Source: Rickettsia typhi (GTDB lineage: Bacteria; Pseudomonadota; Alphaproteobacteria; Rickettsiales; UBA1997). Taken from it: a stretch of DNA of 64,000 nucleotides. Location of the stretch: NCBI GenBank assembly GCA_945865905.1, contig CAMBFC010000001.1, forward strand, positions 174,127 to 238,126, given 5' to 3'. The notes beneath the pieces were generated by a model. It saw nothing but the letters and a program-made list of their open reading frames with translations, was not told the origin of the DNA and made no database searches. The number at the start of each line of letters is the position of its first letter. Position 1 is the stretch's first letter. Position numbers and translations under genes: made by a program. Of the stretch, positions 4,628 to 56,703 are shown piece by piece.

Positions 4628-4685
4628 TTTGTTGATAAATTGAAGGTTAAAAAAGAACAAATAGAACTATAGCATAGACAACCTA

Positions 4686-5138
4686 TTAGGTGTTAACTTG
4701 ACAGTTAACAGATAAAACAAAAAATTGCCTAACTTCGCTCAACTTTCCTAAAGAATATTTTCGAGTCATAGAAGTTTCACAGACAACACATTTACTTTTT
4801 AGGTGCATAATCTTGTCATTTTCGTTAATTACAATTGCTTGACCTTCTAAAGCCTTTCTAGGCTCTCGACACTTGAAGCAAAACATCTCTTCAAAGCAAC
4901 AATGCTTCTTACCAGCCTTTTGCTTTGCGGTTAAAAAATCTCGCAAATCTTCGCAATGAACCATTATCGGCGTTTTACCATCAATAATTTTCAAGCCATT
5001 TTTTAGCCAATATCGCGCCGTTGTTTCGCAAATATTATACAACTCTCGCACTTCGCTAATGCTGTAGGAAGTATTGCTTTCAATCAGTCTGGGATTGAAT
5101 TTGCGCTTGTAAGATTTTAGCTTTATTTTCTTTGTCAT
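4686..5138 (-). CDS. HTH plus Zn-ribbon (CxxC...CxxC) DNA-binding protein, mobile-element associated
   Basis: YSISEVRELYNICETTARYWLKNGL looks like an HTH. CFKCREPR...CVVCETS is a pair of CxxC motifs. I recognise no specific family. Confidence 0.5.
   Translation of the reverse strand: MTKKIKLKSYKRKFNPRLIESNTSYSISEVRELYNICETTARYWLKNGLKIIDGKTPIMVHCEDLRDFLTAKQKAGKKHCCFEEMFCFKCREPRKALEGQAIVINENDKIMHLKSKCVVCETSMTRKYSLGKLSEVRQFFVLSVNCQVNT
4691..4710. promoter_or_regulatory. Inverted-repeat operator candidate TGTTAAC-N6-GTTAACA upstream of the integrase
   Basis: Perfect 7-bp arms. It lies in the last codons of ORF 4686..5138, about 65-85 nt upstream of the integrase ATG at 4627. Confidence 0.4.
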
Positions 5139-5140
5139 AA

Positions 5141-5356
5141 TTAAAAATTTAAGTTTTTTCTGATTTTATCAAAATCGGTTTCATGCTTTCTGATCCACTC
5201 ATTAAAAGCATCTATTCTATACAAAATCCGCTTTCCTAACTTGGTTCGCGGCGCGCCCTTTCTCCTAGAGGCATCCGTTCTTAAGGTTGGAATGGTTTTG
5301 TTTAGAATTTTTGAGACTTCCTCTTCGGTGTAGTAATCATCTAATGTATTTGACAT
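5141..5356 (-). CDS. Excisionase/AlpA-like small HTH protein
   Basis: 71 aa. YYTEEEVSKILNKTIPTLRTDASRRKGAPRTKLGKRILYRIDAFNEWI matches the AlpA/Xis-type helix-turn-helix layout. Located between the integrase and the regulatory module. Confidence 0.6.
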   Translation of the reverse strand: MSNTLDDYYTEEEVSKILNKTIPTLRTDASRRKGAPRTKLGKRILYRIDAFNEWIRKHETDFDKIRKNLNF

Positions 5357-5366
5357 TTTGTAAAAG

Positions 5367-5386
5367 TGTTTAGTTAATAGTTAACA
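5367..5386. promoter_or_regulatory. Operator candidate TGTTTAG-N6-GTTAACA upstream of the Xis-like gene
   Basis: The right half-site is identical to the other two sites and the left half matches 5/7. It lies 11-30 nt upstream of the start at 5356. Confidence 0.3.
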
Positions 5387-5402
5387 ATAAAAGCAAAAAA
5401 TT

Positions 5403-5987
5403 TTAATAACTCAAATCAAGTAAGCCTAGATATTTCAACCTATAAACCAAAGCCTCTCTTGATACTCTAAAAAATTTCATCATCTCGCCCAATACCTCTT
5501 TGATGGGGCAATTGTGATCAATTTCATTCCATTTTTTTATCATTACCTCTTTAGGCATTAAAATATATGCCGCAAACATATTTGCCTGCATTTCAAGCGC
5601 CTCCGTTCTTGGATCCGTAATATCATGAAATAAAGCCACATTTTCAGCTTTGCGATATTGCGGCCTGTGAAAGAAATAATGCCCACCTTCATGAGCAATC
5701 GTGTAATTGCATCGAGCTTCTTTTGTAAAATCTTCTTCTTCGGTATGATTCAAGCTTTCATCAAGCCAAATCGTTTTACCATCTAAATCTAAAGCCCCCA
5801 AAACTCCTTTAAAATCTTTATTCAAATCTGTAAAAAAGATTTTGAGCCTAAAAATCTTTTCAACAATCAAATCAATTGGCGTTGCGCTATCAAAGTTGTA
5901 AAATCCTCTCTTTTGCGCTTTTTGCAAAACTTCATTCGCCTTTCTTTCAAGAACTTCTGGCGTGCGAAAGCTAACTCCTTTTTCCAT
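5403..5987 (-). CDS. ImmA/IrrE-family zinc metallopeptidase
   Basis: HEGGHYFFH (HExxH) motif. It overlaps the upstream XRE gene by 17 nt, the typical ImmR-ImmA arrangement. Confidence 0.8.
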   Translation of the reverse strand: MEKGVSFRTPEVLERKANEVLQKAQKRGFYNFDSATPIDLIVEKIFRLKIFFTDLNKDFKGVLGALDLDGKTIWLDESLNHTEEEDFTKEARCNYTIAHEGGHYFFHRPQYRKAENVALFHDITDPRTEALEMQANMFAAYILMPKEVMIKKWNEIDHNCPIKEVLGEMMKFFRVSREALVYRLKYLGLLDLSY

Positions 5988-6333
5988 TTTTCTTGGCCTC
6001 CAGATCCTGCATAAATTTTTCTACATCTTCTTTTTTTACTCTACGCAAAAATGCCGCATATAGTTGAGGCTCGCGACCTATAATCTCTCCAAGATCAGAA
6101 GGGATTTTTCCAGCCATCGCCACTAATTTGTCTTCATTAACGCCGAGTATTTTTGCCATTTTTTTAATATTCTCTTCTTTCGGCGCCGCATATTCCCCCA
6201 CCTCCATTTTACTGATATAAGTGGCACTTATTCCGACTTTAGTTGCAAACTCTCTCAAGCCGATATTGAGATCAAGTCTGGTTTTTCTTACGAAATCACC
6301 AAAGTTTGACTTCTTCAATTTTTTATTAGGCAT
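5971..6333 (-). CDS. XRE-family HTH transcriptional regulator (ImmR-like)
   Basis: FGDFVRKTRLDLNIGLREFATKVGISATYISKMEVG is a canonical Cro/C1-type HTH. Confidence 0.8.
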   Translation of the reverse strand: MPNKKLKKSNFGDFVRKTRLDLNIGLREFATKVGISATYISKMEVGEYAAPKEENIKKMAKILGVNEDKLVAMAGKIPSDLGEIIGREPQLYAAFLRRVKKEDVEKFMQDLEAKKNGKRS

Positions 6334-6443
6334 AATAATTATTTATTTTGTTTTAGAGAAACACGCATTGATCCAGTAATCTCAGCAACTCTACCAATTA
6401 CTAAAATGCAGTGTTAAGGTAATACTAAACAGTAAATGTTAAG

Positions 6444-6463
6444 TGTCAACTAGAAAGTTAACA
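6444..6463. promoter_or_regulatory. Operator candidate TGTCAAC-N6-GTTAACA upstream of the XRE gene
   Basis: 6/7 plus 7/7 match to the 4691 site. It lies ~110-130 nt upstream of the XRE start at 6333. The flank AGTTAACAATAAA is shared with the 5379 site. Confidence 0.4.
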
Positions 6464-6574
6464 ATAAATGAAGATGTATTTTGAAGTAAAGCGAAATTAT
6501 GTTAATTAACGGACACCAGACGGACACGAGATTGCAAACTTAAACCTCTAAAACTTACCAGCCCTACAGCTGAT

Positions 6575-6650
6575 TGGTGGACTCGGGCGGATTCGAACCG
6601 CCGACCTACTGATTAAGAGTCAGCTGCTCTACCAACTGAGCTACGAGTCC
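6575..6650 (-). tRNA. tRNA-Lys (anticodon CTT), CCA encoded
   Basis: The reverse complement reads GGACTCGTAGCTCAGTTGGTAGAGCAGCTGACTCTTAATCAGTAGGTCGGCGGTTCGAATCCGCCCGAGTCCACCA. It folds as a cloverleaf with a 7-bp acceptor stem, a GTTCGAATC T-loop and anticodon loop CT-CTT-AA. Confidence 0.95.
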
Positions 6651-18903: not shown

Positions 18904-20283
18904 ATGAAATTTCGCACAAAAACAATTGAAAATTTAGTTAGTGGCGCAAGAGCTAAGCCTCTCAAAAAAACCCTCGGAGCGCTTGATTTAGTTTTTCTCG
19001 GAATTGGCTGCACAATCGGCACCGGAATTTTCGTTTTAACAGGAATTGCCGCCGCTCAATACGCGGGTCCAGCCATTGCTATTTCATATTTAATCTCAGG
19101 AGTTGCCTGCATTTTTGCTGGCCTTGCTTATTCTGAATTAGCGGCTGCGATTCCCGTTGCTGGCGGCACTTACACTTATACTTACGCAATTCTCGGCGAA
19201 TTTTCTGCTTGGATGGTCGCTTGCGGAATCTCGCTTTGCTACACTATTGGCGGTGCAACCGTTGCTGCGGGCTGGTCTGGCTATTTTGTTGGCATTATGG
19301 AAGCGGGCGGATATCATATTCCTGAAGCGCTCACAAAAATCCCCTCTGAAGGCGGAATCGTCAATCTTCCTGCGGTTTGCATCACATTATTTATTGGATT
19401 TATTTTAATGCGCGGCACCAAAGAAAGTATCGCGTTAAATCGTTTTCTTGTTGTGATTAAACTTATTGCGATCGCTCTCTTTATTTTTATCGCAGTTCCT
19501 CACATTAAAGTTGAAAACTGGACTAATGATTTTATGCCATTTGGACTCACTGGAGTTTTCACTGGTGCTGCCGCAATATTTTTTGCCTATACCGGTTTTG
19601 ATGCAGTTGCAACTGCGGCCGAAGAAACCAAAAACCCCAATCGCGATTTGCCAATTGGTATCATCGGATCATTATTAGTATGCATTGTGCTTTACATTGC
19701 AGCATCTCTTGCACTTACCGGAATCACTAATTATTCTGAACTCAACAACGCTGAACCAATGGCTTTTGCACTGCGCCAAAATGGCAGCAATGTTGGTGGT
19801 GCAATCGTTGGAGCTGGTGCTCTTGCTGGAATGGTAGCAGTTTTATTAGTATTTATGTATGGCCAATCACGAATATTTTTTGTGATGGCGCGCGATGGAT
19901 TGCTGCCAAAATTCTTCGGCAAAATGCATAAAAAGTTTGAAACTCCCTACATTAGCTGCATCGTAGTAACTATTGCCGTCGCTTTGTTCACTGGCTTTGT
20001 TCCAATCAAAACAATCGCCAGCATTACTAGCCTTGGTGCTTTGTTTGCATTTATCGTTACTTCGTTTGGCGTAATGGTTTTGCGCGTTAAAAGACCAAAA
20101 CTTGATAGACCTTTTCACTGCCCAGCAGTTTTTGTTTTAGCCCCATTAGCAATTCTTATTTGCGGATACTTGCTTTATTCATTATTTATGGTCACCATTC
20201 AAGCCTCATTAATCTGGTTAGTCTGTAGCATATTAGGATATTTTGTTTATGCTTACCGCAAAAGTCCCCTAGGGCGTGATTAA
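18904..20283 (+). CDS. APC-superfamily amino acid permease, tandem paralog 1
   Basis: 459 aa, polytopic, with GIGCTIGTGIFVLTG near the N-terminus. Collinear with the next two genes. Confidence 0.85.
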   Translation: MKFRTKTIENLVSGARAKPLKKTLGALDLVFLGIGCTIGTGIFVLTGIAAAQYAGPAIAISYLISGVACIFAGLAYSELAAAIPVAGGTYTYTYAILGEFSAWMVACGISLCYTIGGATVAAGWSGYFVGIMEAGGYHIPEALTKIPSEGGIVNLPAVCITLFIGFILMRGTKESIALNRFLVVIKLIAIALFIFIAVPHIKVENWTNDFMPFGLTGVFTGAAAIFFAYTGFDAVATAAEETKNPNRDLPIGIIGSLLVCIVLYIAASLALTGITNYSELNNAEPMAFALRQNGSNVGGAIVGAGALAGMVAVLLVFMYGQSRIFFVMARDGLLPKFFGKMHKKFETPYISCIVVTIAVALFTGFVPIKTIASITSLGALFAFIVTSFGVMVLRVKRPKLDRPFHCPAVFVLAPLAILICGYLLYSLFMVTIQASLIWLVCSILGYFVYAYRKSPLGRD

Positions 20284-20308
20284 AAATTTAAAGTTACTTT
20301 TTTAAAAC

Positions 20309-21688
20309 ATGAAATTTCGCGTAAAAACAATTGAAAGCCTGATTAGCGGCGCAAAAGCTAAACCACTTAAAAAAACTCTGGGCGCAATAGATTTAATATT
20401 TTTAGGAATTGGGTGCACAGTTGGCACAGGGATTTTTGTTTTAACAGGCATTACCGCCGCACAATATGCTGGCCCCGCAATTGCACTTTCATATTTAATT
20501 TCTGGTATTGCCTGCATTTTTGCTAGCCTTGCTTATTCTGAATTAGCAGCAGCAATACCGGTTGCTGGTGGCGCTTATACCTACACTTACGCTATTCTTG
20601 GAGAGTTTGCCGCTTGGATGGTTGCTTGCGGAATCTCGCTTTGCTATACTATTGGTGGCGCAACCGTTGCAGCGGGCTGGGCAGGCTATTTTGTTGGCAT
20701 CTTAAAAGCGGCGGGCTATCACATTCCCGATGCGCTAACAAAAATTCCTGCTGAAGGCGGAATCATCAATCTTCCCGCTGTTGGCATCACATTATTAATT
20801 GGTCTATTTTTAATTCGCGGCACCAAAGAAAGCATTGTTCTTAATCGCGTTCTGGTTGTTTTAAAACTGGCGATTATTTTTATTTTTATTTTTCTCGCCG
20901 TTCCCGATATTAAAATCGAAAACTGGACCAATGATTTTATGCCATTTGGTATCACTGGAGTTTTCACTGGCGCCGCCGCAATTTTCATCGCTTATATTGG
21001 ATTTGAAGCCGTTGCAACAGCTGCTGAAGAAACTAAAAATCCCAATCGTGATTTGCCAATTGGCATCATTGGATCACTTATTGTTTGCATCGTACTTTAT
21101 ATTGCAGTTGCACTTTCTCTCACCGGAATCACTAACTATTCTGAACTAAACAATGCCGAACCAATGGCTTTTGCACTTCGTCAAAATGGTAGCAATATTG
21201 GCGGCGCTTTGATAGGAGCTGGCGCCCTTACTGGCATGGTGGCAGTTTTATTGGTTTTAATGTATAGTCAATCACGAATATTTTTTGTAATGTCACGCGA
21301 TGGCTTGTTACCAAAATTTTTTGGAAAAACACACAAAAAGTTCGAAACTCCTTACATAAGCTGTATCATTGTGACTCTTGCTGTTGCTTTATTTACAGGA
21401 TTTGTTCCGATTCAAACAATTGCCAGCATCACTAGTTTAGGAATTTTATTCGCCTTCATGGTTACTGCATTTGGTGTGATGGTTTTGCGCATTAAAAGAC
21501 CAAAACTTGATAGACCATTTCGCTGCCCTGCGGTTTTTGTTTTGGCCCCATTAGCAATTTTGGTTTGCGGCTATTTGCTTTATTCTCTATTAATTGTAAC
21601 CATGCAAGAATCTTTGATTTGGCTGACTTGCAGTGTGATTGGATATTTTCTTTATGCTTATAAAAAAAGCCCTTTAGGTCAAAAATAA
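20309..21688 (+). CDS. APC-superfamily amino acid permease, tandem paralog 2
   Basis: 459 aa. Most positions are identical to paralog 1 by eye. Confidence 0.85.
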   Translation: MKFRVKTIESLISGAKAKPLKKTLGAIDLIFLGIGCTVGTGIFVLTGITAAQYAGPAIALSYLISGIACIFASLAYSELAAAIPVAGGAYTYTYAILGEFAAWMVACGISLCYTIGGATVAAGWAGYFVGILKAAGYHIPDALTKIPAEGGIINLPAVGITLLIGLFLIRGTKESIVLNRVLVVLKLAIIFIFIFLAVPDIKIENWTNDFMPFGITGVFTGAAAIFIAYIGFEAVATAAEETKNPNRDLPIGIIGSLIVCIVLYIAVALSLTGITNYSELNNAEPMAFALRQNGSNIGGALIGAGALTGMVAVLLVLMYSQSRIFFVMSRDGLLPKFFGKTHKKFETPYISCIIVTLAVALFTGFVPIQTIASITSLGILFAFMVTAFGVMVLRIKRPKLDRPFRCPAVFVLAPLAILVCGYLLYSLLIVTMQESLIWLTCSVIGYFLYAYKKSPLGQK

Positions 21689-21748
21689 AAACTATGTAAA
21701 TTGAAAGTTCAACTTGCAATTTACATAAAATTTAAATCATAAATAGTT

Positions 21749-23137
21749 ATGAAATTTCGCGTAAAAACAATCGAGCATTTAATCGCTGATGCTAAAGCTA
21801 AGCCTCTTAAAAAAACCCTAACTACTCTCGATTTAGTTTTTCTTGGAGTTGGCTGCACAATCGGTACCGGAATTTTTGTTTTAACAGGAATTGCCGCCGC
21901 TCAATATGCTGGTCCCGCAATTGCAATTTCATATCTAATTTCAGGAATTGCCTGCATTTTTGCTGGCCTTGCTTATTCTGAACTTGCTGCAACGATTCCT
22001 GTGGCAGGCGGCTCTTATACCTTTAACTATGCTATTCTTGGTGAATTTGCTGCGTGGATGGCATCTTGCGGGCTTTTTCTTGGCTACGCAATCGCCGCTG
22101 CAACCGTTGCCGCGGGCTGGTCAGGCTATTTTGTTGGCATAGTCAATTCTGCTGGATATCACATCCCAGAAATGCTCACAAAAATTCCGGCTGAAGGCGG
22201 GCTCGTCAACCTTCCTGCCGTATTAATCGCTCTATTAATTGGCGTTATTTTAATGCGCGGCACCAGAGAAAGCATCATTCTAAACCGCGTTCTTGTTATT
22301 ATAAAACTTGTCGCAATTTTTCTCTTTATTTTCATCGCCGCTCCTCACATTAAAGTTGAAAACTGGACTGATGATTTTATGCCTTTCGGTCTCAACGGAA
22401 TTTTCACCGGCGCCGCGGCAATATTTTTTGCCTATAATGGATTTGATGCCGTTGCTACCGCAGCAGAAGAAACCAAAACTCCTAATCGCAGCCTGCCAAT
22501 CGGCATTATCGGTTCACTTTTAGTGTGCATCGTGCTTTATACCGCGGTTGCTTTGGCACTTACCGGAATCACTAACTATTCTGAACTCAACAACGCCGAA
22601 CCAATGGCTTTTGCACTCCGCCAAAATGGCAGCAATATTGGCAGTGCCTTGATAGGAACTGGCGCTCTTACTGGAATGATGGCAGTTTTGTTGGTATTGA
22701 TGTATGGTCAATCACGAGTATTTTTTGTAATGTCACGCGATGGATTATTGCCAAAATTCTTCAGCAAAATGCACAAAAAATATGAAACACCTTTTTTGAG
22801 CTGTCTTGTAGTAACTGTTCTTGTTTGTGCTTTTGGTGGATTGGCACCGATCAAAACAATCGCCAGCCTAACTAGTATTGGTATTTTGTTTGCTTTAATT
22901 TTATGCGTGATTTCAGTTATGGTTCTTCGGTTTACGCGCCCTAAACTTGAAAGACCATTCCGCTGCCCCGCACTTTTTGTTATCGCACCTTTGGCAATTT
23001 TAATTTGCAGCTACTTGATTTACGCCCTTATGGGAGAGGTGTTTGTGCCGTTTTTGATTTGGTTGTTTTGTGGTGTGGCGGGGTATTTTCTTTATGGATA
23101 TAGAAAAAGCCCTTTGAATGAGAGGAATAAAAAGTAG
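21749..23137 (+). CDS. APC-superfamily amino acid permease, tandem paralog 3
   Basis: 462 aa. Same architecture, somewhat more diverged, especially in the last ~100 aa. Confidence 0.85.
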   Translation: MKFRVKTIEHLIADAKAKPLKKTLTTLDLVFLGVGCTIGTGIFVLTGIAAAQYAGPAIAISYLISGIACIFAGLAYSELAATIPVAGGSYTFNYAILGEFAAWMASCGLFLGYAIAAATVAAGWSGYFVGIVNSAGYHIPEMLTKIPAEGGLVNLPAVLIALLIGVILMRGTRESIILNRVLVIIKLVAIFLFIFIAAPHIKVENWTDDFMPFGLNGIFTGAAAIFFAYNGFDAVATAAEETKTPNRSLPIGIIGSLLVCIVLYTAVALALTGITNYSELNNAEPMAFALRQNGSNIGSALIGTGALTGMMAVLLVLMYGQSRVFFVMSRDGLLPKFFSKMHKKYETPFLSCLVVTVLVCAFGGLAPIKTIASLTSIGILFALILCVISVMVLRFTRPKLERPFRCPALFVIAPLAILICSYLIYALMGEVFVPFLIWLFCGVAGYFLYGYRKSPLNERNKK

Positions 23138-24202: not shown

Positions 24203-24206
24203 TAGT

Positions 24207-24376
24207 GTTAAAAAAGTTAAATGAGAATTTGTGAAGGGGGCGAGACGATGGTCCTCTGCTGCTCAGACACCCTTTTTATTTGATTTAAAGCAAGCGTAGC
24301 TTGCAATAAAAATGGAACTCGCCTCAGAGGACCATCGTCTCGCCCCCTTCCCAAATTCTCATTTAACTTTTTTGAC
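24207..24376 (-). repeat. Nested palindromic element, copy A (66-nt core 24259..24324 with 52-bp copy-specific arms)
   Basis: The arms GTTAAAAAAGTTAAATGAGAATTTGTGAAGGGGGCGAGACGATGGTCCTCTG and its reverse complement differ at 2 positions. The core is shared with copies B-E. It lies 5 nt downstream of the acs stop. Confidence 0.85.
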
Positions 24377-24381
24377 ACCTA

Positions 24382-29000: not shown

Positions 29001-29094
29001 GTTGTATTGGGTTGTTGAAAACTTTATGCTTTCAAAATATTGTTGCAACCAGTTATTTAAATCACAAGGAATTAGGAAGAGACAAAAAAAACTT

Positions 29095-29242
29095 AAAGAA
29101 AGGCTTAAGAGCTTTACTGGCAAGGCTCTGAGCCGAGTTCCATTTTTATTGCAGGCTACGCTTGCTTTAAATCAAATAAAAAGGGTGTCTGAGCAGCAGA
29201 GCCTTGCCAGTCAAGCTCTTCAGCCGAGGGCGAGATCTATAA
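29095..29242 (+). repeat. Nested palindromic element, copy B (core 29131..29196)
   Basis: The core matches the reverse complement of the copy A core at 64/66 positions. Middle arms are TTACTGGCAAGGCTCTG and CAGAGCCTTGCCAGTCAA. Outer conserved ends are GAAAGGCTTAAGAGCT and AGCTCTTCAGCCGAGGGCGAGATCTATAA. Confidence 0.85.
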
Positions 29243-29329
29243 GCAAAAGAAGATTACAAAATCCTTTTAAACCAAAAAAGGCGAGGCCACAAAACGCACC
29301 TCGCCTTCTCTAAAAAAATATAAAAACTT

Positions 29330-31096: not shown

Positions 31097-34000
31097 TTAT
31101 TTTCTTTCGGTTGTTCTGTCTGTTTGATTTAGTGGTAATCCCGCAGGATCTTTGAGGTTTTGAGGGGGAGGAGCCTCTTCTATATCTGAAAGGGTTGGAC
31201 TGCTAGTGCTCCAGCCTGGCGCTGGAGAGCGGGGGCCGTCTATATTTGGATCGTAGTTTTGACCGTCATTGTCAAACCCATCAAGAGCGGCTTGAAATCT
31301 TGCGCGCGAATCAAGACTATTAGATAACGGGTCTACCACCGAACCTGAACTACTACTTCTAGCCATTGCTGCTCCTGCGGGTAGATCATCAACGCGCGAC
31401 TCTGCCACCACTACTTGACCATCTCGATCTCGCTGCATCATATCTGTTTGAGGTGCTGCCTCCAAGGGGCCACCCATCGGCCCTAATTCTACATCGGCAG
31501 TCTCTACTCGATACACTGTTTCTGGAAACACTCTATTTCTATCAGGACGATTTCTTAAATATTTTATGGTAACGCCAGCTGCAACAAGAGCAGCTGCTAA
31601 TGAGACGGTTATAGTAGGCACCAATACAGATGCTTCGGCATTGCCTCCGTCGTTATTAGGTGGACTTTTTGATGTGCTAGAAATTGGATCTTCCGTTGTA
31701 ATAGGATCGGATTGCGCTTTAGTAGTTGGAGTATTTGAAGCTGTTGGAGTAGTTGGAGCCGTTGGAGCCGTTGCAACAACAGTGCTTGCGCTTCTGGTAT
31801 ATGTTGTAACAGAATAGGTTGCGGTGGCGGTATCATAAGAATCTGGGCTCGATTGAGAAATCGAACTCGATTGAGAAGTTGGTCGCAAAGTTGCGGCGGT
31901 CGAAGTGTCGGGCTGCGTCGCCAAAGTGCTTGCAACGGTCGCTGGATCTGATTGCGAATCTGACTTTGAGGTTGAAAAAGTTGAAGAATCTGCGGTTGGA
32001 GATGAAGCTGAAGATAAACTAGAAGTGGTATCAGAAACTGAATTTGAAATTGAACTTGATTGAGAAGTTGGCTGCAAAGTTGCGGCGGCCGAAGTATCGG
32101 GCTGCGTTACCGAAGTGCTTGCAACACTCGCCGGAACTTCTGTAGTTACAACCTGCAACTGCGATATAAGATTGGCAACAAACTCTTGATTTTCTCCATA
32201 AAATGTAATATTGGTGTTTCCCGGAAAAATCGCTTTAACCGAAGCAACACCATCAACATCAACCATTTCAGTAACAACCGATTGCGCATTGATCGGCTGT
32301 GGAAAAAAAAGCTTCGCATTGCCGCCCTGATTAACCATTGTATAGCTTGCATTTGCCGCAAAAACAATATTGGCGCCCTGAACTGAAGGCGGAACTATTA
32401 TTATAGTAGAATGACCAGCAATTGCTTGATCGCCACTAAAAGAATTTGCAACATAGGTTTCATTATTCGCAATAGAATAAGCTCTTATATTTTCGATATC
32501 GGTTCTTATTCCATTAGGATTAGAAAAAGTTGCGGCGGTGATAACATTTCCGTTAGCAGATATTTCGTTAAAACCAACGACAACCTGACTATTTGCTGGC
32601 GTCTCTAAGGCGGGATGATCGGCCAATGGGCTTGATGTGATTGATAAATCTGTGGCATTTACTAGATATCCATCCTGCGGTACTCCACCTTTGCTAAAGG
32701 CAGCAAAAACATTATTACCTTCTGGCACAACGCCATTCACTGCTATTGTGCGACGAACTCTGGAAAAAACTGAGCTTCGAATGCCAGCATTAATTTCTCT
32801 AAATCCAGCAATAATTTTACCATCTTGAGAAACAGCCATAACCACCCCAGCGGTTTCTGCTGTGCCAATATCATAAACAACAGCCGCCTCTACATTGCCA
32901 TCTGGCAATGGTCTGGTAGAAAAATCAGTAATAGTGAAGGTTCCTGCCGATATTGATTCTGTGTTATTTGTTGGTATTGCAGTATCTGTTGAGCCAACGG
33001 GGCCAGTATTTGCAATCGAAAAAAGCACATTATCTTGAGCCGCTAAATGAACGCCACTCGCGGTATAAAATTGTTGCACTAATTGTGGCAGACCATCAGC
33101 GCCAGTTACTTTGGCAATAGTGTAAAAATTGCCACTGCTTGCTTTGTAAAGCTGCATATTTCCATCATAACCAACCGCATCAGGTTGCGCTGTGGCACTG
33201 TGAACATATGGCGCATTGGTAACAAATGCTGGCGTTGCAGGAAAAATTCCTAGAACATTCGCCACCGAATTTGATGCAGCTGGATCAGGGCTTAGGCCCT
33301 CAATTGCGATACTACCGCCATTTAATGCCCCGCTACCAAAAAGCGTCACACTATCTGCGTTTAGCACTAGATTGATTGCTGGCGATAACAAGCTGAAGGT
33401 ATTATTGCTTGCGGCACTCTGATAGGCTGCACCACTCAACGGTACTCCGTTAACAGATAACACGACCTGCGCTACACCAGAGGGAATTATTAAAGTAGAT
33501 TCACCTACTATACCATTTGCAGTGGCATTAACTTGAAAATTTACTGCAAAATTAGGATCGGTTAATCCGCTATTTTCAGCTATCGCGGTTAGATTAACAT
33601 TTTCAGGCATTTGTGCGTTCACGCTAATGATGTTGCCATTAACTTGAGCGAGCAATAATGGCACATCTTTTCTTGTGCGCTCTTTTTTATTCGCTGCTTG
33701 ACTAACAGCAACAGGTTGTGGCGTTGCGAGTTCTATCTTAGTTTTTGGGGCTTCTACAGGGGCTTCTACAAAATATGAGCTAGCTTGGTTTATTGCACCT
33801 TGCACAGCTTTTCTTATTTCACTTGCAACATTAGCTGCTATTTCTAACCAAGAACGCTGATTTGCGGCTTCTTCAGCAGCTTTTTTAGCGGCTTCTTTAG
33901 CGGCTACACGCTCAGCTTGAGCGGCTTTTTTTCCAACTCTTTGCTCTGCCAATCTTTCTTCTCTGGATTTTTCATGTTCGAATGGTTCTTCTCTTGGTTG

Positions 34001-34165
34001 CCCATGCCTATTAAGACCACCACCAAATTGAGTTAATGGCCCCAAACCATGAGGGACATTAACAGGAAAGTTCTGCACTCTCGTAGGTTGTTGCGGCAAA
34101 ACTGCTGGCGGAGCATATGAAGGGGGGGCCGTTACACCACGAGCAACAGGAAAATTATCGGTCAT
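31097..34165 (-). CDS. Large orphan protein, paralog 1: ~500-aa conserved domain, Ser/Thr-rich stalk, single TM helix, Pro-rich tail
   Basis: Collinear similarity to ORF 34279..36585 (LVQQFYTASG vs LVQRFFTATG; IIIVPPSVQGANIVFAANASYTMVNQGG vs IIIIPPSVVGAVITFVANAAANITYTLVNQGG). TM segment VLVPTITVSLAAALVAAGVTI followed by KYLRNRPDRNR. The likely start is MTDNFPV at 34165 (track ORF extends to 34231). Confidence 0.7.
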   Translation of the reverse strand: MTDNFPVARGVTAPPSYAPPAVLPQQPTRVQNFPVNVPHGLGPLTQFGGGLNRHGQPREEPFEHEKSREERLAEQRVGKKAAQAERVAAKEAAKKAAEEAANQRSWLEIAANVASEIRKAVQGAINQASSYFVEAPVEAPKTKIELATPQPVAVSQAANKKERTRKDVPLLLAQVNGNIISVNAQMPENVNLTAIAENSGLTDPNFAVNFQVNATANGIVGESTLIIPSGVAQVVLSVNGVPLSGAAYQSAASNNTFSLLSPAINLVLNADSVTLFGSGALNGGSIAIEGLSPDPAASNSVANVLGIFPATPAFVTNAPYVHSATAQPDAVGYDGNMQLYKASSGNFYTIAKVTGADGLPQLVQQFYTASGVHLAAQDNVLFSIANTGPVGSTDTAIPTNNTESISAGTFTITDFSTRPLPDGNVEAAVVYDIGTAETAGVVMAVSQDGKIIAGFREINAGIRSSVFSRVRRTIAVNGVVPEGNNVFAAFSKGGVPQDGYLVNATDLSITSSPLADHPALETPANSQVVVGFNEISANGNVITAATFSNPNGIRTDIENIRAYSIANNETYVANSFSGDQAIAGHSTIIIVPPSVQGANIVFAANASYTMVNQGGNAKLFFPQPINAQSVVTEMVDVDGVASVKAIFPGNTNITFYGENQEFVANLISQLQVVTTEVPASVASTSVTQPDTSAAATLQPTSQSSSISNSVSDTTSSLSSASSPTADSSTFSTSKSDSQSDPATVASTLATQPDTSTAATLRPTSQSSSISQSSPDSYDTATATYSVTTYTRSASTVVATAPTAPTTPTASNTPTTKAQSDPITTEDPISSTSKSPPNNDGGNAEASVLVPTITVSLAAALVAAGVTIKYLRNRPDRNRVFPETVYRVETADVELGPMGGPLEAAPQTDMMQRDRDGQVVVAESRVDDLPAGAAMARSSSSGSVVDPLSNSLDSRARFQAALDGFDNDGQNYDPNIDGPRSPAPGWSTSSPTLSDIEEAPPPQNLKDPAGLPLNQTDRTTERK

Positions 34166-34278
34166 AAATTTATTACAAAAAATTATAAAAAATACATTTG
34201 AAACAGTTTCAAATGACAAATTAAAAATCAATAAACAAGATAGCTCAATGATTTAGGCTTTATATCAAGTTTATTTGA

Positions 34279-36552
34279 TTAAACTCGTGACTCGTGATTA
34301 CGCTCATTACTTGCCACTAATTTATTCGCTGCTGGTACTCGCAATGGTGGCAATTCGTTCCTTGGCTGTTGCAAAACAGCTTGAGGTGGTGGCAATGCCG
34401 CGGCATCTTGTTGATCTGGCTGCGGCTCTGGAGCAAAAGCGTTAGTGCGAGACCTAGGCGGTTGTAGCCTATCTTGCACAGGAGACAATTCGACAGCTTG
34501 TTGATCTGGCTGCGGCTCTGGAGCAACAGCGTTAGTGCGAGACCTAAATTTATTGTAAAGCCACGCCCCACCCATAATAGCGAGAACACCGCCAATAACA
34601 CCACCTATAACATATGGATTGACAGATGAGGAAGGATTCGGACTTGGACCTGCAATAGTAGTAGCGGCAGGCGCCAGAGTTGTGTTAGGCAGAGCCACAA
34701 TTGTGGGCAATGCTGTTAATTCACGAGTTGCGCTTTCAGTAGTATCGGGGCGCTGCGTAGAAGTGCTTTGACTGGTCTCGATAGAAGGATCAGCCGAAAC
34801 CCCTCCTTTTGAGGTACTTGGATTTTGCGTAGAAGATGCTATCGAGCTGCAATCGTTAAGCTGCGCCACAAGATCAGTGACTATATCCACACCTTGCCCA
34901 ACAAAGATAATATTAGCGCCGCCAAAATGAACCACTGATGACGGAGCGCCATCAATATTAACCGCATCAATGATTGGATTTTGAGTATCAATCCCAGAAA
35001 AACAATAAGAAGCCCCGCCACCCTGATTAACCAAAGTATAGGTAATATTAGCAGCAGCATTTGCAACAAAAGTGATTACGGCCCCAACAACAGAAGGAGG
35101 AATGATAATAATTGGCAAATCATCACTCGCCTCATTTGCAACAACATATTCTTCGCCATTTTCAATAACATGAACTTCACAACCCGCAATTTCTTCTAGC
35201 GCAGTAGTGTTAGAAAATTGCCCAATAGTTACTCTTCCTCCAGCAGAACTAGCAGAACTATAGCCATCAATAGCGATCTGGTTATTTTCTACAGGCAATA
35301 ATACTTGATGATCTGCGACAAGGCTTTGCTCTATTAAACCCGCTGTTGCATTATAAAATATTCCTTCCGCGGGCGAATTTCCGCGTCGGCTAAAAGCCGC
35401 AAAAAAATTATGGCTATCTGGATCTACCGCATTAGCTTCTGCGCCCACTAGAGCAATTTTGCGCTGCAAGAAATTAAAAGCGGTTGATGTAGCAGGAAAA
35501 CTAACATCTCGCGCGCCAGCAGTCATGTTTCCCATTTGATCAATAACCATAGAAATTCCACCAGTTTCTACAATGCCGCGATTGTAAGTTGCGGCAATAC
35601 CTATTGCGCCATTAGATAATTGTCGCGCAGCAAAATTAGTGATCGCAAATCCTGCAAAATCAGTATTATTCATTGGGATATCTTGCTCTGCTACTCCAGT
35701 TGGATTAGGTCCTGAATTGACATAAGTAATAATATCGCGCTGCAGCTCTGGCATTGGCGCACCAGTTGCGGTAAAAAATCTTTGCACTAATCGCGGCGCA
35801 TCGCCACTATTATCTATAGCAAAGGTAGAAAAAGTGCCATCTAGGTTGCTAAATAGCTGCGCATTTGTATCAAAATTTTGTGATTGATCTATCGTGAATT
35901 GTCTTTTATAAAGCACATCAACAGTATAATCTTGAATTGCTGGCAAAACTCCTAAACAATTTACAATAGAATTGGGGCTTGCGGGAATAGAATCCAAACC
36001 AAAAATTCTGATAGAACTATTATCAATCTGCGCACTACCGCTATTAGCAAATATTGCACCGCCATCACTATTTAACAGCAAAGTAGTTGGTGAATTAGTA
36101 AAAGGAAAACTGCCACTATCTCTATCATCTGAACAAACAACGCCACTTAGCGAAACTCCATTAACAGTTAAAGCAAGAGGCGAGCCATTATTAGGACATG
36201 TTAAATTAAGCTTGCCAACAATGCCTTGGCTGCCATCTTGATTAAAATAGTCAAAGTTAAAAAAACATATTTTTTCTTTTTCTACACCAAAAGCCTCAGC
36301 TATTTGACCTAAATCAAAAGAATTTTCAAGAATTGTTTCGTTGCGATAAAATCTGATATTAAAAACATCACTACCATCATTATTTGGCGCGACTAAAGAA
36401 CCACCTTCAATGTTAACTCTTTCGCCATTAAGAGAAATAAACAGATTATCATATCTACTCAAATCTGTTCTGCGCACCGCAGTAATTGGTGATCTAATCA
36501 AGCGAACAAATGCAGCCGCAGCACGACTGATATATCCAGAAGGTATATCCAT
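34279..36552 (-). CDS. Large orphan protein, paralog 2: same architecture
   Basis: Same conserved domain, a Ser/Thr/Pro stalk, TM segment VIGGVIGGVLAIMGGAWLY followed by NKFRSR, and a duplicated 30-aa tail repeat. The likely start is MDIPSGY (track ORF extends to 36585). Confidence 0.7.
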   Translation of the reverse strand: MDIPSGYISRAAAAFVRLIRSPITAVRRTDLSRYDNLFISLNGERVNIEGGSLVAPNNDGSDVFNIRFYRNETILENSFDLGQIAEAFGVEKEKICFFNFDYFNQDGSQGIVGKLNLTCPNNGSPLALTVNGVSLSGVVCSDDRDSGSFPFTNSPTTLLLNSDGGAIFANSGSAQIDNSSIRIFGLDSIPASPNSIVNCLGVLPAIQDYTVDVLYKRQFTIDQSQNFDTNAQLFSNLDGTFSTFAIDNSGDAPRLVQRFFTATGAPMPELQRDIITYVNSGPNPTGVAEQDIPMNNTDFAGFAITNFAARQLSNGAIGIAATYNRGIVETGGISMVIDQMGNMTAGARDVSFPATSTAFNFLQRKIALVGAEANAVDPDSHNFFAAFSRRGNSPAEGIFYNATAGLIEQSLVADHQVLLPVENNQIAIDGYSSASSAGGRVTIGQFSNTTALEEIAGCEVHVIENGEEYVVANEASDDLPIIIIPPSVVGAVITFVANAAANITYTLVNQGGGASYCFSGIDTQNPIIDAVNIDGAPSSVVHFGGANIIFVGQGVDIVTDLVAQLNDCSSIASSTQNPSTSKGGVSADPSIETSQSTSTQRPDTTESATRELTALPTIVALPNTTLAPAATTIAGPSPNPSSSVNPYVIGGVIGGVLAIMGGAWLYNKFRSRTNAVAPEPQPDQQAVELSPVQDRLQPPRSRTNAFAPEPQPDQQDAAALPPPQAVLQQPRNELPPLRVPAANKLVASNERNHESRV

Positions 36553-36770
36553 AAAATATTTAATAAGTATATTAATATGACTCACTATCTTCTACAACAA
36601 ACTAAGCTTTTAATCAAGATTAATTTGACCTGATTTTTTTACAGAATTTTATCGAATTAGTTTATAAAAATTGTCTTATTCTAATTTAATTGCAAAATTT
36701 TGTTTAATTTAACAAAATTAAATCTAATCTATCGATATCGAAAATTCTAAATAACCAAACTATTTTGCAA

Positions 36771-50174: not shown

Positions 50175-50264
50175 TTTGACATCTATTGCCGCTAAGCGGC
50201 AACTCGGGCTTTAACTACTGCTAGCTCTACTACGGCGAGTCCTACTACAGGGAGTCCTACTACG

Positions 50265-52016
50265 GTGAATGCTGATACTATTGCTACATTAGCTACTACA
50301 TTAGCAACTCAGATCACTGAAGCGGCAACTCAGGCTACTACGGCTAGTTCTGTTAGTGTGAGTTCTACTACGGTGAGTTCTAATACTATAAGCCCTACTA
50401 CTGCTGCAACTGCAGAACTAACTACAACTATAAGCCCAACCACCGCCAACAAAACAATCACAAACACCACTGGCGAACCCACTGCTCAAGAAACTCCAAA
50501 CAAACCAGCGTCATTCACACCAAAAATCGTTGGTGGTGCACTTGGAGCTGCCGCAGTTCTGATAGCAGGGGCAGCAGCTCTAGCAAAAAGAAGAAGAAAT
50601 CAAACAGGAAGCTATGGAATTGCTAGCTTTGACTTTTCTAATATAGCAAATAGTGAAAATGACCAAAACCCTGGAACACACACAACGATCAACATCGACA
50701 ATTTTTCGACATCAAATCTAGAAAATCTAGATTCGTTTCAGAGCAATTCTAGAACCAATCCCGCTACACCACCACCTATGCCCAGCTTCAGAGGCGCGCT
50801 ACCGTCAACAGTCACAAGAGTCATCGTGTCGCCAATGAGTAGCACAAATCCAACATCAGCGCATCTTCCAGAAACACCGCCAACGGCACAAGCAGCAAGT
50901 CCTAGTAGCAATAGAGTAGTGCGAGATGATACAATACCGCCGCTCACAAGAATGCAAACTGAACGCACTCAGACTCATCCAGCACCAAGAATAAATCAAC
51001 CACAAGCACATCTTCCACAAACGGCACCAGTAGTGGCAGCAGCATCTAAAAAAACTAGTCGCAATAAAGTAGCGCCAGAAAAAGAAATGCCGGGTAGAAC
51101 ATCACTCACAGTAATGCAAACCACTCAAACGCCGCCGCCACCAACAGTAAACAAATGGACAGAAGGCAGCGGAGAAGTAATCCAAAGGATTGTCGTTACT
51201 CCAGCACAGGCAACACAAGCAGCAGCGCAATTGCCAAGCGATGAAGAAATCAGAGAAGCGATAGAAGCCCTTGAAATACTTGCTAAAAAAATATCGGATT
51301 TAAAAACGATAACAAGATATTTAAATACAAGACACAAAACCGATACATTGTTAGATGCTGCACAAAAAATTTTGGGAGGAACGCCAAGGCCTCCTCAAGC
51401 ACTATCCCAACAACGAATCGAAGAAGATTTAAAGGATGTAGCCAACGCGATTTTTGAACATTCCGCTAGAGATATACAAGCTTTGAAAAAAGTAATAAAC
51501 TCAGGCTTGATAAAAGAAGACGAAAACTTGACAGCAAAAGAAGTCTTTACGCTGCTTGCGGTTCAAATGCAATCTTTGCAAGCAACAATAAATTCAAGCA
51601 TACATGATGAGAATGAAGGCGCTTTTGCAAACGCTTTTCGTGCCCTTGATAACAGCGCTATCAATATAGGTTCTTTGCAAAGAATAATAGCTACGAATAC
51701 AATAGTCAGAACTGAAGGAAGGGAAGAACAAGTTGTTGAAGATGTACGAACACTCCATCTAGCTATAGCTCCAGCCAAAGGCGGCATAAGAAGAGAGACT
51801 CCTTTATCAACAGCAAGGGGTCATCGCGCTATGGCAGCAGCACCCACAGAAACTCCACATCCGGATGATGGCGCTATGGCAGCGACACCAACTAGAAGAT
51901 ATGGACGAACTGCAACCGTTCATCCTGAAATGCAACCAGCTCAACAACAGCGTCCACCACAAAAATTCTCAGCCACACCTTTAGGCAAAGAAAGGCCAAA
52001 CACCCCAACGATCTAA
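50265..52016 (+). CDS. Orphan Ser/Thr-rich stalk, TM helix and Pro-rich tail protein (583 aa; GTG start assumed)
   Basis: Starts directly in the Thr/Ser-rich region. TM segment IVGGALGAAAVLIAGAAALA followed by KRRRNQ, then a long Pro/Gln/Thr-rich tail. The frame is open from 50196 and there is no ATG before 50265. Confidence 0.55.
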   Translation: MNADTIATLATTLATQITEAATQATTASSVSVSSTTVSSNTISPTTAATAELTTTISPTTANKTITNTTGEPTAQETPNKPASFTPKIVGGALGAAAVLIAGAAALAKRRRNQTGSYGIASFDFSNIANSENDQNPGTHTTINIDNFSTSNLENLDSFQSNSRTNPATPPPMPSFRGALPSTVTRVIVSPMSSTNPTSAHLPETPPTAQAASPSSNRVVRDDTIPPLTRMQTERTQTHPAPRINQPQAHLPQTAPVVAAASKKTSRNKVAPEKEMPGRTSLTVMQTTQTPPPPTVNKWTEGSGEVIQRIVVTPAQATQAAAQLPSDEEIREAIEALEILAKKISDLKTITRYLNTRHKTDTLLDAAQKILGGTPRPPQALSQQRIEEDLKDVANAIFEHSARDIQALKKVINSGLIKEDENLTAKEVFTLLAVQMQSLQATINSSIHDENEGAFANAFRALDNSAINIGSLQRIIATNTIVRTEGREEQVVEDVRTLHLAIAPAKGGIRRETPLSTARGHRAMAAAPTETPHPDDGAMAATPTRRYGRTATVHPEMQPAQQQRPPQKFSATPLGKERPNTPTI

Positions 52017-54115: not shown

Positions 54116-54143
54116 AAAAATAAGATGCAAATATATAAAATTT

Positions 54144-54291
54144 AAAAAATAAAGAGAAAGCCTAGGTTGGAGAAAGAGGGTCTGAGGCGAGTTCTGCAAA
54201 TATCGCGAGCTACGCTCGCTTTAAATCAGATAGTTGCGGTGTCTGAGCAGCAAACCCTCTTTCTCCAACCTAGGCTTTCTCTTTATTTTTT
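54144..54291 (+). repeat. Nested palindromic element, copy C (core 54185..54250), divergent with compensated stems
   Basis: 38-bp arms AAAAAATAAAGAGAAAGCCTAGGTTGGAGAAAGAGGGT and its reverse complement. The conserved blocks AGGCGAGTTC, TTTAAATCA and TGTCTGAGCAG are retained. The inner stems are changed but still complementary. The right arm overlaps the rppH 3' end. Confidence 0.85.
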
Positions 54292-54794
54292 AAAAACTCA
54301 GCAAAATCATTAATAACATCTTCATAAAGTTCTCGTTTAAACGAAACAATATGACTAACAATTTCTGCTAACGAAACCCATTTCCACTCCGAAAATTCAG
54401 GATCTTCAGTGGCAATATTAATCGCAGAATCATCACCAACAAACTCAATTAAATACCAGCGTTGTTTTTGCCCCAAATATTTGCCACCCCAAAATTTTTT
54501 CTGCAATTTATAAGGCAAATTATAATAATAGTGGCCGAGGCTTTTGCTGATTACTTTGACATGATTTGAACTGATGCCAGTTTCTTCTTTTAGCTCGCGC
54601 AACATTGCATCATCTTCTTGCTCATTAACATCGATCCCACCTTGCGGCATCTGCCATGCATCCGAATTATTATCAATTCTTTTTCCAACAAAAATTTGTT
54701 TTTGCGCGTTAATTATCATGATTCCAACGCCGCTGCGATAGAGATAATCTGGCTTGGTACTGTTTTGATCTTTGATAGAATCGCTTATTTGCAT
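54270..54794 (-). CDS. rppH: RNA pyrophosphohydrolase (Nudix)
   Basis: Nudix box GGIDVNEQEDDAMLRELKEETG and RppH/NudH-like flanks (WQMPQGG, QKQRWYL). Confidence 0.9.
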   Translation of the reverse strand: MQISDSIKDQNSTKPDYLYRSGVGIMIINAQKQIFVGKRIDNNSDAWQMPQGGIDVNEQEDDAMLRELKEETGISSNHVKVISKSLGHYYYNLPYKLQKKFWGGKYLGQKQRWYLIEFVGDDSAINIATEDPEFSEWKWVSLAEIVSHIVSFKRELYEDVINDFAEFLKNKEKA

Positions 54795-56319: not shown

Positions 56320-56474
56320 ATTATAGATCTCGTCCGCGGCTTGAGAGCTAGTTAGGTAAGGCTCTGCTGCTCAGACACCCTTTTTATTTGAATTAAAGCA
56401 AGCGTAGCTTGCAATAAAAATGGAACTCGCCTCAGCAGAACATCTTCAGCCAATCTCCTCGGCCTTTCTTGAAG
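56320..56474 (-). repeat. Nested palindromic element, copy D (core 56367..56432)
   Basis: The core matches copy A at 65/66 positions. The outer end TTATAGATCTCGTCC starts 1-2 nt after the thrC stop. The middle arms are degenerate. Confidence 0.8.
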
Positions 56475-56560
56475 TTTTTTAGGTGGTTTTTAAATCTTTA
56501 CCGCAACAACCCAAAAGGACTTTATTATTGAAAGAATAACCTTAATATAAAAATACTAGA

Positions 56561-56703
56561 AGAAAGGCTTTAGAGCTTGCTGGTGATGCTTGAATGCGAG
56601 TTCCATTTTTATTGCAAGCTACTCTTGCTTTATTCAAATAAAAAGGGTGTCTGAGCAGGCGAGTATCACCAGCAAGCTCTAAAGCCGAGGACGAGATCTA
56701 TAA
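56561..56703 (+). repeat. Nested palindromic element, copy E (core ~56594..56658)
   Basis: Core with a few substitutions and a 1-nt deletion. Arms are GCTTGCTGGTGAT and ATCACCAGCAAGC. The outer end is AGCTCTAAAGCCGAGGACGAGATCTATAA. Inverted relative to copy D. Confidence 0.8.

Follow-up and report, generated by a model that had tools for sequence, protein, structure and literature searches.

The 64,000-nucleotide stretch of DNA analysed here (hereafter the window; positions 174,127 to 238,126 of contig CAMBFC010000001.1 in assembly GCA_945865905.1, labelled Rickettsia typhi) carries a long hairpin in the spacer between rppH and holC. This locus raises the question of whether selection acts on the structure rather than the sequence of such a hairpin and, if so, on which strand, in which nucleic acid and for what kind of element. 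A first-pass annotation had compared this hairpin, copy C, with four similar ones in the window (copies A, B, D and E) and had suggested that its inner stems carry compensatory changes around constant unpaired blocks. Set against a larger collection of related copies, copy C turns out to be one member of a previously undescribed hairpin repeat that belongs to the bacterial dispersed-palindrome kind.

Copy C spans 54141–54294 (+) and forms a 154-nucleotide (nt) hairpin consisting of an outer stem and a 66-nt apical module, with a covariance model score of 103.4 bits. The 5′ arm of the outer stem (54141–54184, +; 44 nt) is 98% complementary to the 3′ arm (54251–54294, +). Between the two lie, in order and all on the + strand, the 5′ side of an internal loop (AGGCGAGTT, 54185–54193), the 5′ arm of a middle stem (CTGCAAATATC, 54194–54204), an apical hairpin reading GCGAGC-TAC-GCTCGC (54205–54219), a 9-nt asymmetric one-sided bulge (TTTAAATCA, 54220–54228), the 3′ arm of the middle stem (GATAGTTGCGG, 54229–54239) and the 3′ side of the internal loop (TGTCTGAGCAG, 54240–54250). 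The predicted folding energy is −91.2 kcal/mol (z = −13.6) compared with −87.5 for the reverse strand, and TGTCTGAGCAG with at most one mismatch occurs 6 times in the window versus 0.52 expected, a count reached in 0 of 100 shuffles. All features that had been listed for copy C are found in the sequence, including the nine Watson-Crick pairs and one U.G of the 11-bp middle stem CTGCAAATATC/GATAGTTGCGG. The remaining pair of this stem, an A.G, results from a C-to-A change at 54200, and a G-to-A change at the start of the 3′ outer arm, which begins CAA and not CAG, results in an A.C mismatch. The orthologous copy in a 99%-identical strain (locus L057) has a perfect middle stem (TGCAACTATC/GATAGTTGCG) and retains CAG, and both mismatches of copy C, being absent there, are recent uncompensated single mutations. 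The dominant middle-stem class of the family is ‘type 2’, to which copy C belongs in slightly damaged form; it is not an isolated compensated variant. The constancy of the unpaired blocks is exact for C versus A only: copy B has AGCCGAGTTC, copy E has ATGCGAGTTC and TTTATTCA, and copy D has TTTAATTCA.

A pattern scan of one genome per species recovered 11 true copies, all in the metagenome-assembled genome (MAG) ‘Rickettsiales bacterium Baikal-deep-G64’ from Lake Baikal, the other 10 loci being chance matches without hairpins, and a second, differently anchored pattern identified 28 loci in a handful of Joint Genome Institute freshwater metagenomes. A covariance model built from 16 copies then returned 51 copies (49 distinct) from 266 kb of sequence comprising the window and the Baikal and metagenome loci, with scores of 80–112 bits on the sense strand and about 15 on the antisense strand; the window total stayed at five, the model adding none. 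Common to all copies is a conserved 66-nt asymmetric apical module set on an outer stem of 22–81 bp, giving an element of 120–230 bp. The outer stems differ in sequence from copy to copy, yet are usually perfectly paired. Searching IMG/VR with both patterns returned no true copies, and a phage origin was rejected on this ground. A scan of the window against Rfam 15 at gathering thresholds found three tRNAs only, and E-value scans of copies A and C returned only generic long-hairpin microRNA models, far below threshold. The core sequence was found in no relevant paper, and a mention of the Baikal MAG was likewise not found.

Covariation in the apical module is extensive. In the first 16 copies 95.5% of cells pair, against 77.7% when shuffled and 38–50% with slid partners, with 18 of 29 pairs changed on both sides; the corresponding values for 50 distinct sequences are 97.7%, 80.4% and 34–50%. 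A larger set of copies could have been expected to break pairing as often as keep it if structure did not matter, and the suggestion that structure, in RNA or single-stranded DNA (ssDNA), is under selection and not sequence alone is upheld in this 10-fold larger sample. The A-U to G-C switch noted in the apical stem of copy C recurs in 9 of 49 copies, the pair in question (41–75) being AU in 40 copies, GC in 9 and mismatched in none. The middle stem has invariant ends and a hypervariable centre of 3–4 bp (AAC/GTT, AAT/ATT, GCC/GGC, GTT/AAC, TCC/GGA and others). The internal loop is itself partly helical, as AGGC/GCAG is replaced by AACC/GGGG in three copies and GAUAC/GUAUC occurs in one other, while loop pair 18–108 is GC in 44 copies, CG in 3 and AU in 1; the G-C and C-G pairs across the two sides of the loop in copy C are thus backed by covariation elsewhere in the family. 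The invariant loop residues are GAGUU/UGUCUGA, with candidate tandem G.A pairs recognised by inspection. In eight orthologous pairs with flanks that differ by 6–20%, 6.3% of unpaired-block sites and 4.2% of apical-stem sites have changed, compared with 16% of sites in the middle stem and 14.6% in the inner arms. Unpaired blocks evolve 2–3 times more slowly than stems, and stems drift but keep pairing while loops stay constant. Within the module, constraint acts on the sequence of unpaired nucleotides and on the pairing of helices, and the module is read as a single strand of one polarity.

That polarity is evident from the imperfections of the outer stems, which in 45 distinct copies comprise 1704 Watson-Crick pairs, 31 G.U, 2 A.C and 10 other mismatches. 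Scored symmetrically, G.U outnumbers A.C by 24 to 3 (p = 5e-5); some G.U pairs are inherited among related copies, so that the counts exceed the number of independent events, although the direction is unambiguous. At one pair of the middle stem 36 of 50 copies have U.G and all others C-G, and in copy E three outer-stem positions toggle between G.U and Watson-Crick pairs relative to locus L058 (HolC 99% identical) with no A.C. In 43 of 44 copies it is the sense strand that folds more stably, with a mean core energy of −32.5 versus −26.1 kcal/mol under RNA parameters and a smaller but persisting gap (−21.6 versus −19.0) under DNA parameters. Since the outer-stem imperfections are G.U and not A.C, the folded strand is the one reading AGGCGAG...CUGAGCAG, whatever its orientation to neighbouring genes. 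The same strand had been proposed from two pairs, with the caveat that orientation relative to flanking transcription is mixed, and both points hold in the larger set, where 11 copies lie in sense and 15 in antisense between co-directional genes.

The outer arms follow a different rule. Outer stems are flawless in 24 of 44 copies (median 40 bp), and pairing extends to as many as 80 of 81 positions. Across nine comparisons of related or orthologous long-arm copies, these being the ones nearly free of one-sided changes, about 65 positions have changed on both sides and 1 on one side, and a broader set of 12 related pairs contains 77 double changes, 38 of them of a transversion type for which no wobble intermediate is possible, as well as 12 mirrored indels. 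Even between copy C and its L057 orthologue (HolC 99% identical) the arms differ by one fully compensated pair. Further evidence comes from two orthologous loci in which a tandem solo duplicate of the 3′ arm (GTCTGAGCAG plus the arm; L013:3860–3914 and L028:1816–1870) directly follows the element and has been kept in both. In L028 the solo duplicate retains the ancestral CTTAACTCAATC and both hairpin arms have shifted together to CTTAGGTTAATC/GATTAACCTAAG, and the arms therefore co-evolve in place. This all-or-none pattern at an approximately neutral rate points to arm-to-arm copying, which yields it, as stepwise compensatory selection does not. Quasipalindrome template switching is a documented replication error of Escherichia coli that perfects imperfect inverted repeats in one event, multi-base changes and indels included (PMC7202029), although this is a mode of mutation and no family of elements, and its study has concerned short quasipalindromes in reporter genes rather than the maintenance of a dispersed repeat. 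The compensation in the outer stems is thus largely mechanistic, that is templated, and not stepwise. The short-arm subfamily (B, D, E and relatives; 26–29 bp) is closer in behaviour to a classical structured molecule, G.U pairs being frequent in it and mismatches occasional.

If arm conversion or template switching explained all of the compensation, the element would be a DNA-level palindrome free of structural selection, with a core conserved only through youth. Perfect arms, mirrored indels and transversion-type double changes show that templated copying operates, and its mechanism is established (PMC7202029). Asymmetry would, however, be lost through copying between arms, yet all 49 copies retain the 9-nt bulge, the 10/11-nt internal loop, the fixed U.G and, in type-1 stems, the A.G; a G.U to A.C ratio of 24–31 to 2–3 is strand-specific; and the copies are not young, as the arms of paralogues differ by 20–40% while the unpaired core blocks are near invariant. 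The palindrome explanation is largely refuted, and we consider it extremely improbable. Since bulge, loop, fixed U.G and wobble bias lie beyond the reach of arm copying, they require selection. The first-pass annotation had dismissed arm-to-arm conversion too readily, as conversion is the better explanation for the perfect compensation of the long outer stems, but its conclusion stands for the core.

Comparison of close strains shows that copies come and go. The rppH–holC spacer measures 179 nt in the window and L057 (a 25-nt filler plus the element) but contains no element in L034 (8 nt; 96–98% identical DNA), L061 (1 nt) or L060 (30 nt), while copy C is present in the 99% strains L057 and L058. 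Its 3′ arm encodes the final five codons and the stop of the rppH-like gene (−), so that in the window and L057 the rppH frame extends five codons into the arm and ends ...FLKNKEKA* in place of ...FLK*. Copy D is missing in L034, and beside B an extra copy is present in L038 but not in the window. Loss is reciprocal in L026 and L006, in each of which one partner of an ancestral head-to-head pair is retained and the second reduced to a remnant. In the window D is a chimera: it begins with the 5′ arm of D and, past the conserved core, continues into a 3′ arm and tail that belong to a short-arm copy. Its L058 orthologue is an intact hairpin, the 27-bp arms of which pair perfectly. A total of 78 kb from relatives with HolC identities of 77%, 72% and 57% yielded no copies; the closer of these relatives partly share the gene order around holC with the window. 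Because copies are gained, lost and recombined between strains and are absent from these relatives, the family is young, confined to a narrow clade of freshwater Rickettsiales-like bacteria and composed of individually dispensable copies.

All copies lie between genes or reach no further than the final codons of one, and the core contains stop codons. They occupy 9 of 26 convergent spacers versus 1 of 24 divergent ones (p = 0.011). Insertion, loss and recombination proceed on the time scale of strain divergence, and copies survive mostly by gene ends and not in divergent promoter regions. A possible origin of the arms as an inverted duplication of the target flank was considered and rejected: the distal TTTAAA of copy C matches native rppH, but TTTAAA is self-complementary, and paralogues share whole arms. 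A role for the arms as guides to other loci was likewise rejected, as only short A-rich chance matches were found in the 266 kb.

Small, non-coding, multi-copy and intergenic elements with presence/absence polymorphism call to mind a classical miniature inverted-repeat transposable element (MITE), that is, a remnant left by deletion within an insertion sequence and mobilised in double-stranded form by a transposase binding terminal inverted repeats, and the short-arm subfamily, with fairly conserved arms (GGCTTAAGAGCTTGCTGG...) and conserved flanking extensions, comes closest to this description. In most copies, however, conservation is lowest in the terminal repeats and highest in the centre, the reverse of a MITE; no target-site duplication is seen; the sequence searched yielded neither an insertion sequence with matching ends nor a transposase; and a strand-specific wobble bias is unexpected for a double-stranded substrate. 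We regard a classical MITE as very unlikely.

We favour, with a probability of roughly 50%, a lineage-restricted, non-autonomous palindromic repeat of selfish or semi-selfish nature, the apex of which is recognised as single-stranded RNA or ssDNA and the stem of which templates itself. The element has two layers. The first, the 66-nt asymmetric apical module, is the functional determinant, built from a partly helical internal loop, in which candidate tandem G.A pairs flank two G-C pairs, an 11-bp helix containing the fixed U.G and a hypervariable central patch, the 9-nt one-sided bulge, and a 6-bp apical stem closed by a UAC triloop. The second, the outer stem of 22–81 bp, is free of sequence constraint and kept near-perfect mainly by in-situ copying between the arms, probably through quasipalindrome template switching during replication, with selection against disruptive sense-strand mismatches superimposed. 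A trans-acting protein would recognise the folded module on single-stranded nucleic acid and spread the element; by analogy with IS200/IS605-RAYT systems (RAYT, REP-associated tyrosine transposase, named after repetitive extragenic palindromic or REP sequences) and with integron attC sites, an ssDNA-acting transposase or recombinase is a candidate. That copies turn over fast, can be dispensed with, lie in either orientation and avoid promoter regions fits a selfish element, and the lack of a sense bias relative to neighbouring genes argues against a function tied to host mRNAs.

Several observations weigh against this selfish, single-strand-recognised repeat. Neither a target-site duplication nor a clean insertion junction was found, and no direct repeats flank the copies; the best empty site (L034 versus copy C), for which filled and empty sequences were read directly, shows the 25-nt filler and locally raised divergence, with its junction inside the self-complementary TTTAAA. 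Wherever two copies are close neighbours, at seven loci (window D/E, L011, L037, L038, L039, L045 and L048), they are arranged head-to-head, with a − copy followed by a + copy within about 250 nt, and none of the seven is tandem or tail-to-tail, an arrangement that the model leaves unexplained. No cognate transposase, recombinase or reverse transcriptase was detected in the window or in about 200 kb of related loci, a search that covered a small fraction of any genome and relied on Pfam for window open reading frames (ORFs) of at least 150 aa, except two permease paralogues and one ORF overlapping copy B, and on a crude IS200/RAYT (HUH-Y1) motif search for the related loci, supplemented by a paralogue search for the Baikal loci. 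The HUH-Y1 motif matched none of 720 ORF segments, no multicopy gene emerged from these searches, and the sole tyrosine recombinase in the window is an integrase (3509–4660) within a tRNA-linked island. Finally, A.C has been purged in situ at orthologous sites and G.U has not, which suggests that resident copies are constrained; a purely selfish DNA transposon has no obvious need of this, and a transcribed functional RNA fits it at least as well.

These last considerations lead to a structured RNA family with a host function, in which copies would be transcribed from their own promoter or pervasively, the apical module would bind a protein, selection would keep the sense-strand fold, and the long perfect stem would serve as an RNase III substrate or as a stabilising or terminating hairpin. 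The preference for G.U over A.C at resident orthologous copies, including single-step toggles between G.U and Watson-Crick pairs in HolC-99% strains, agrees with this, as do the sense/antisense gap of a typical core (7.5 kcal/mol under RNA versus 2.6 under DNA parameters), the candidate tandem G.A pairs and fixed U.G typical of RNA motifs, the preference for gene 3′ ends, and the arm bases of subfamily iii, which resemble bidirectional terminators: its arms begin TTGAAAAAGATG and end CATCTTTTTCAA, placing an A-tract at the 5′ base and a T-tract at the 3′ base, and subfamilies i and ii are without a T-tract. Orientation to flanking genes is nevertheless unbiased (11 sense versus 15 antisense), and there is no conserved promoter upstream, where nothing is conserved past about 10 nt and an A-run and sigma-70-like matches occur at the level of shuffled sequence. 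The genome’s own terminators are of a different type (GGCGAGG...CCTCGCC plus a T-run, as at 29274–29305), and a terminator scan of the window skips the elements, calling only the small apical hairpin of D and E. Copies are also dispensable, being lost, truncated or chimeric between close strains, sister lineages of like gene order lack them, and no Rfam family matches. A host-function RNA is, in our judgement, possible but on the unlikely side, and we retain the selfish or semi-selfish repeat as the preferred interpretation.

Among known systems, integron attC sites offer one parallel: they are recognised as a folded single strand of set polarity, with stem structure mattering over sequence and extrahelical or asymmetric features marking the strand. 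The G.U bias and asymmetric bulges show that the present element likewise acts as a folded single strand of one polarity, a likeness of principle and not of membership, as attC sites have conserved boxes (R″/L″, L′/R′) at the stem base and a variable tip and lie in cassette arrays adjacent to intI, whereas here the stem bases are variable and copies are solitary, in both orientations, between housekeeping genes. REPINs, which are REP doublets mobilised by RAYTs, are high-copy extragenic hairpin repeats (Bertels and Rainey 2011, PMC3116915). Shared with them are the non-coding and hairpin-forming nature, compensatory changes, a proposed action as ssDNA or RNA, higher-order clusters, and decay to singlets or remnants. 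The ends of REPINs are, however, invariant and their spacer variable and compensated, whereas the present element varies at its ends around an invariant centre; Pfam (window) and the motif scan revealed no RAYT gene in the fraction of the genome available, and the arms of the present element are perfect and as long as 81 bp. In working principle, a folded single strand with a structure-plus-bulge code, the repeat is closest to REPINs and attC sites, and it belongs to neither because its conserved and variable parts are arranged in reverse.

Rickettsia palindromic elements (RPEs), Correia, enterobacterial repetitive intergenic consensus (ERIC) and SPRITE sequences are bacterial MITE-like repeats (review: PMC10969869), and by analogy the present repeats may plausibly influence termination, the stability of mRNAs or their processing by RNase III. 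With RPEs they have in common a length of about 150 bp, a palindromic nature, a Rickettsiales-type genome and the ability to fuse to ORF ends, as copy C does by adding five codons to the rppH-like frame; they are set apart by their intergenic position and hypervariable arms, as RPEs are conserved over their full length, lie in frame within genes and encode a conserved peptide. MITE membership by conserved terminal repeats was rejected because outer arms differ almost wholly between copies, only the short-arm subfamily being semi-conserved. Known RNA families were rejected as well: no Rfam model, self-cleaving ribozymes included, matches the element at its gathering threshold; a hammerhead, hairpin or twister-type ribozyme was discounted on the two-way loop topology of the junction and the lack of model matches; and a kink-turn or box C/D motif was discounted because, although CUGA and GA are present as a candidate tandem G.A, covarying G-C and C-G pairs abut the GA and there is no 3-nt bulge.

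The other four copies of the window, like copy C, are intergenic among alphaproteobacterial housekeeping genes (acs, ksgA, a pntA-like gene, rppH, holC, thrC and ccmF). Copy A (24205–24378, −; 109.3 bits) has 54-bp outer arms with 52 Watson-Crick pairs and 2 mismatches around a core at 24259–24324, and lies 3 nt past the stop codon of the acetyl-CoA synthetase gene in sense orientation. Copy B (29092–29242, +), of the short-arm subfamily, consists of a 5′ extension (cttaaagaaa), 29-bp arms at 29102–29225 and a 3′ tail, GAGGGCGAGATCTATAA; it is antisense to both flanking genes, and its L038 orthologue has perfect 29/29 arms. An intrinsic terminator for the pntA-like gene (29274–29310, −; GGCGAGG-N12-CCTCGCC plus a T-run) lies beside it. 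The chimeric or degenerate copy D (about 56320–56478, −) has an intact core at 56367–56432 and 5′ and 3′ arms mismatched to each other. Copy E (56556–56703, +), again of the short-arm subfamily, has 27-bp arms (hairpin 56566–56686) with two G.U pairs, the loop variant AATGCGAG/GCAGG and the tail GAGGACGAGATCTATAA, and stands head-to-head with D and in sense to ccmF. The outer stems of A, C and B/E are unrelated in sequence, each being a long near-perfect palindrome.

Flanking modules differ by subfamily. Short-arm copies are preceded by an A-run and CTYAAGAAA and followed directly at their 3′ side by GAGGRCGAGATCTAWAA, found at 29226–29242, 56321–56337 and 56687–56703 in the window and at many other loci, and type-i copies are followed by a related ...GAGATCTAAAA tail. 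At L046 the motif AGATCTAAA occurs on both sides of the copy, and in the window the exact 11-mer is found only beside B, D and E. Type-iii copies have a small upstream hairpin of A and T only, CTATTTTTTCTCCAAAAAAATAG; the A/T hairpin CTATTTTTT-CTCC-AAAAAAATAG immediately 5′ of the large hairpin is conserved among type-iii paralogues such as L006, L027, L031, L039, L044 and L045.

Relatives beyond the family’s range have features of their own, some of them at the same sites. The rppH–holC spacer of a 79% relative (L064:869–1048) is 178 nt long and contains a different direct repeat (TGCGATTGTTGAA... twice) with no hairpin element, and in a 77% relative a gene of 596 aa with no Pfam match lies between rppH and holC (L052:8155–9945). 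The latter locus also encodes an 822-aa protein (L052:12841–15309) with a weak match to RhoGAP, a eukaryote-like domain hinting at a host-associated lifestyle. A more distant Rickettsiales MAG (L055, GCA_017999675.1; HolC 57%) is without this family and has other long palindromes (L055:13429–13504 and L055:20204–20324), one of a widespread CGTCATTGCGAGCGAAGCG... type and one a hairpin with 46-bp arms in the ccmF–thrC spacer, the site of copies D and E in the window.

Elsewhere in the window, positions 1–6650 form a probable integrated island beside a tRNA gene (6578–6650, −), comprising the tyrosine integrase (3509–4660, −), a type I restriction-modification specificity subunit (2091–3512), an IrrE/M78-like peptidase (5403–5987) and ORFs without a Pfam match. 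Three tandem amino-acid permease paralogues of 459–462 aa (18904–23137; 75–84% protein and about 80–84% DNA identity) represent a local triplication. Adjacent ORFs of 1044 and 768 aa (31097–36585, −), 35% identical to each other and without a Pfam match, contain internal direct repeats (31857–32138 and 34401–34546), and a 15-nt periodic repeat (CTACTACGGCGAGTC-like; 50212–50419) marks the start of a 583-aa ORF (50265–52016), also without a Pfam match.

To our knowledge, dispersed palindromic repeats are common in bacteria while their spread and selection are understood for very few, chiefly the REP/RAYT system. The present family cleanly separates a sequence constraint on unpaired nucleotides from a pairing constraint on helices with a strand-specific wobble signature, and adds as a third process arm-to-arm templated copying, which mimics RNA-style covariation without selection. 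This carries a warning for covariation-based RNA discovery, in that perfect compensation accompanied by transversion-type doubles and mirrored indels points to a DNA mechanism and not to selection on RNA. The family is also a tractable natural system for the question of ssDNA or RNA, and its inverted layout, with a conserved apex and free ends, suggests a mode of recognition unlike those of MITEs and REPINs. A rather unlikely possibility is that the repeats represent a new class of hairpin mobile element or a new RNA gene family, with a recognition module conserved at the apex and carried by a stem that templates itself. This stem could then diversify at an approximately neutral rate and even grow by copying flanking DNA, since one arm regenerates the other. 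A genome would hold, by extrapolation, about 100 copies, each with a unique perfect duplex of 40–80 bp, and these, if transcribed, would be bacterial precursors of locus-specific double-stranded RNAs on a common protein-binding handle.

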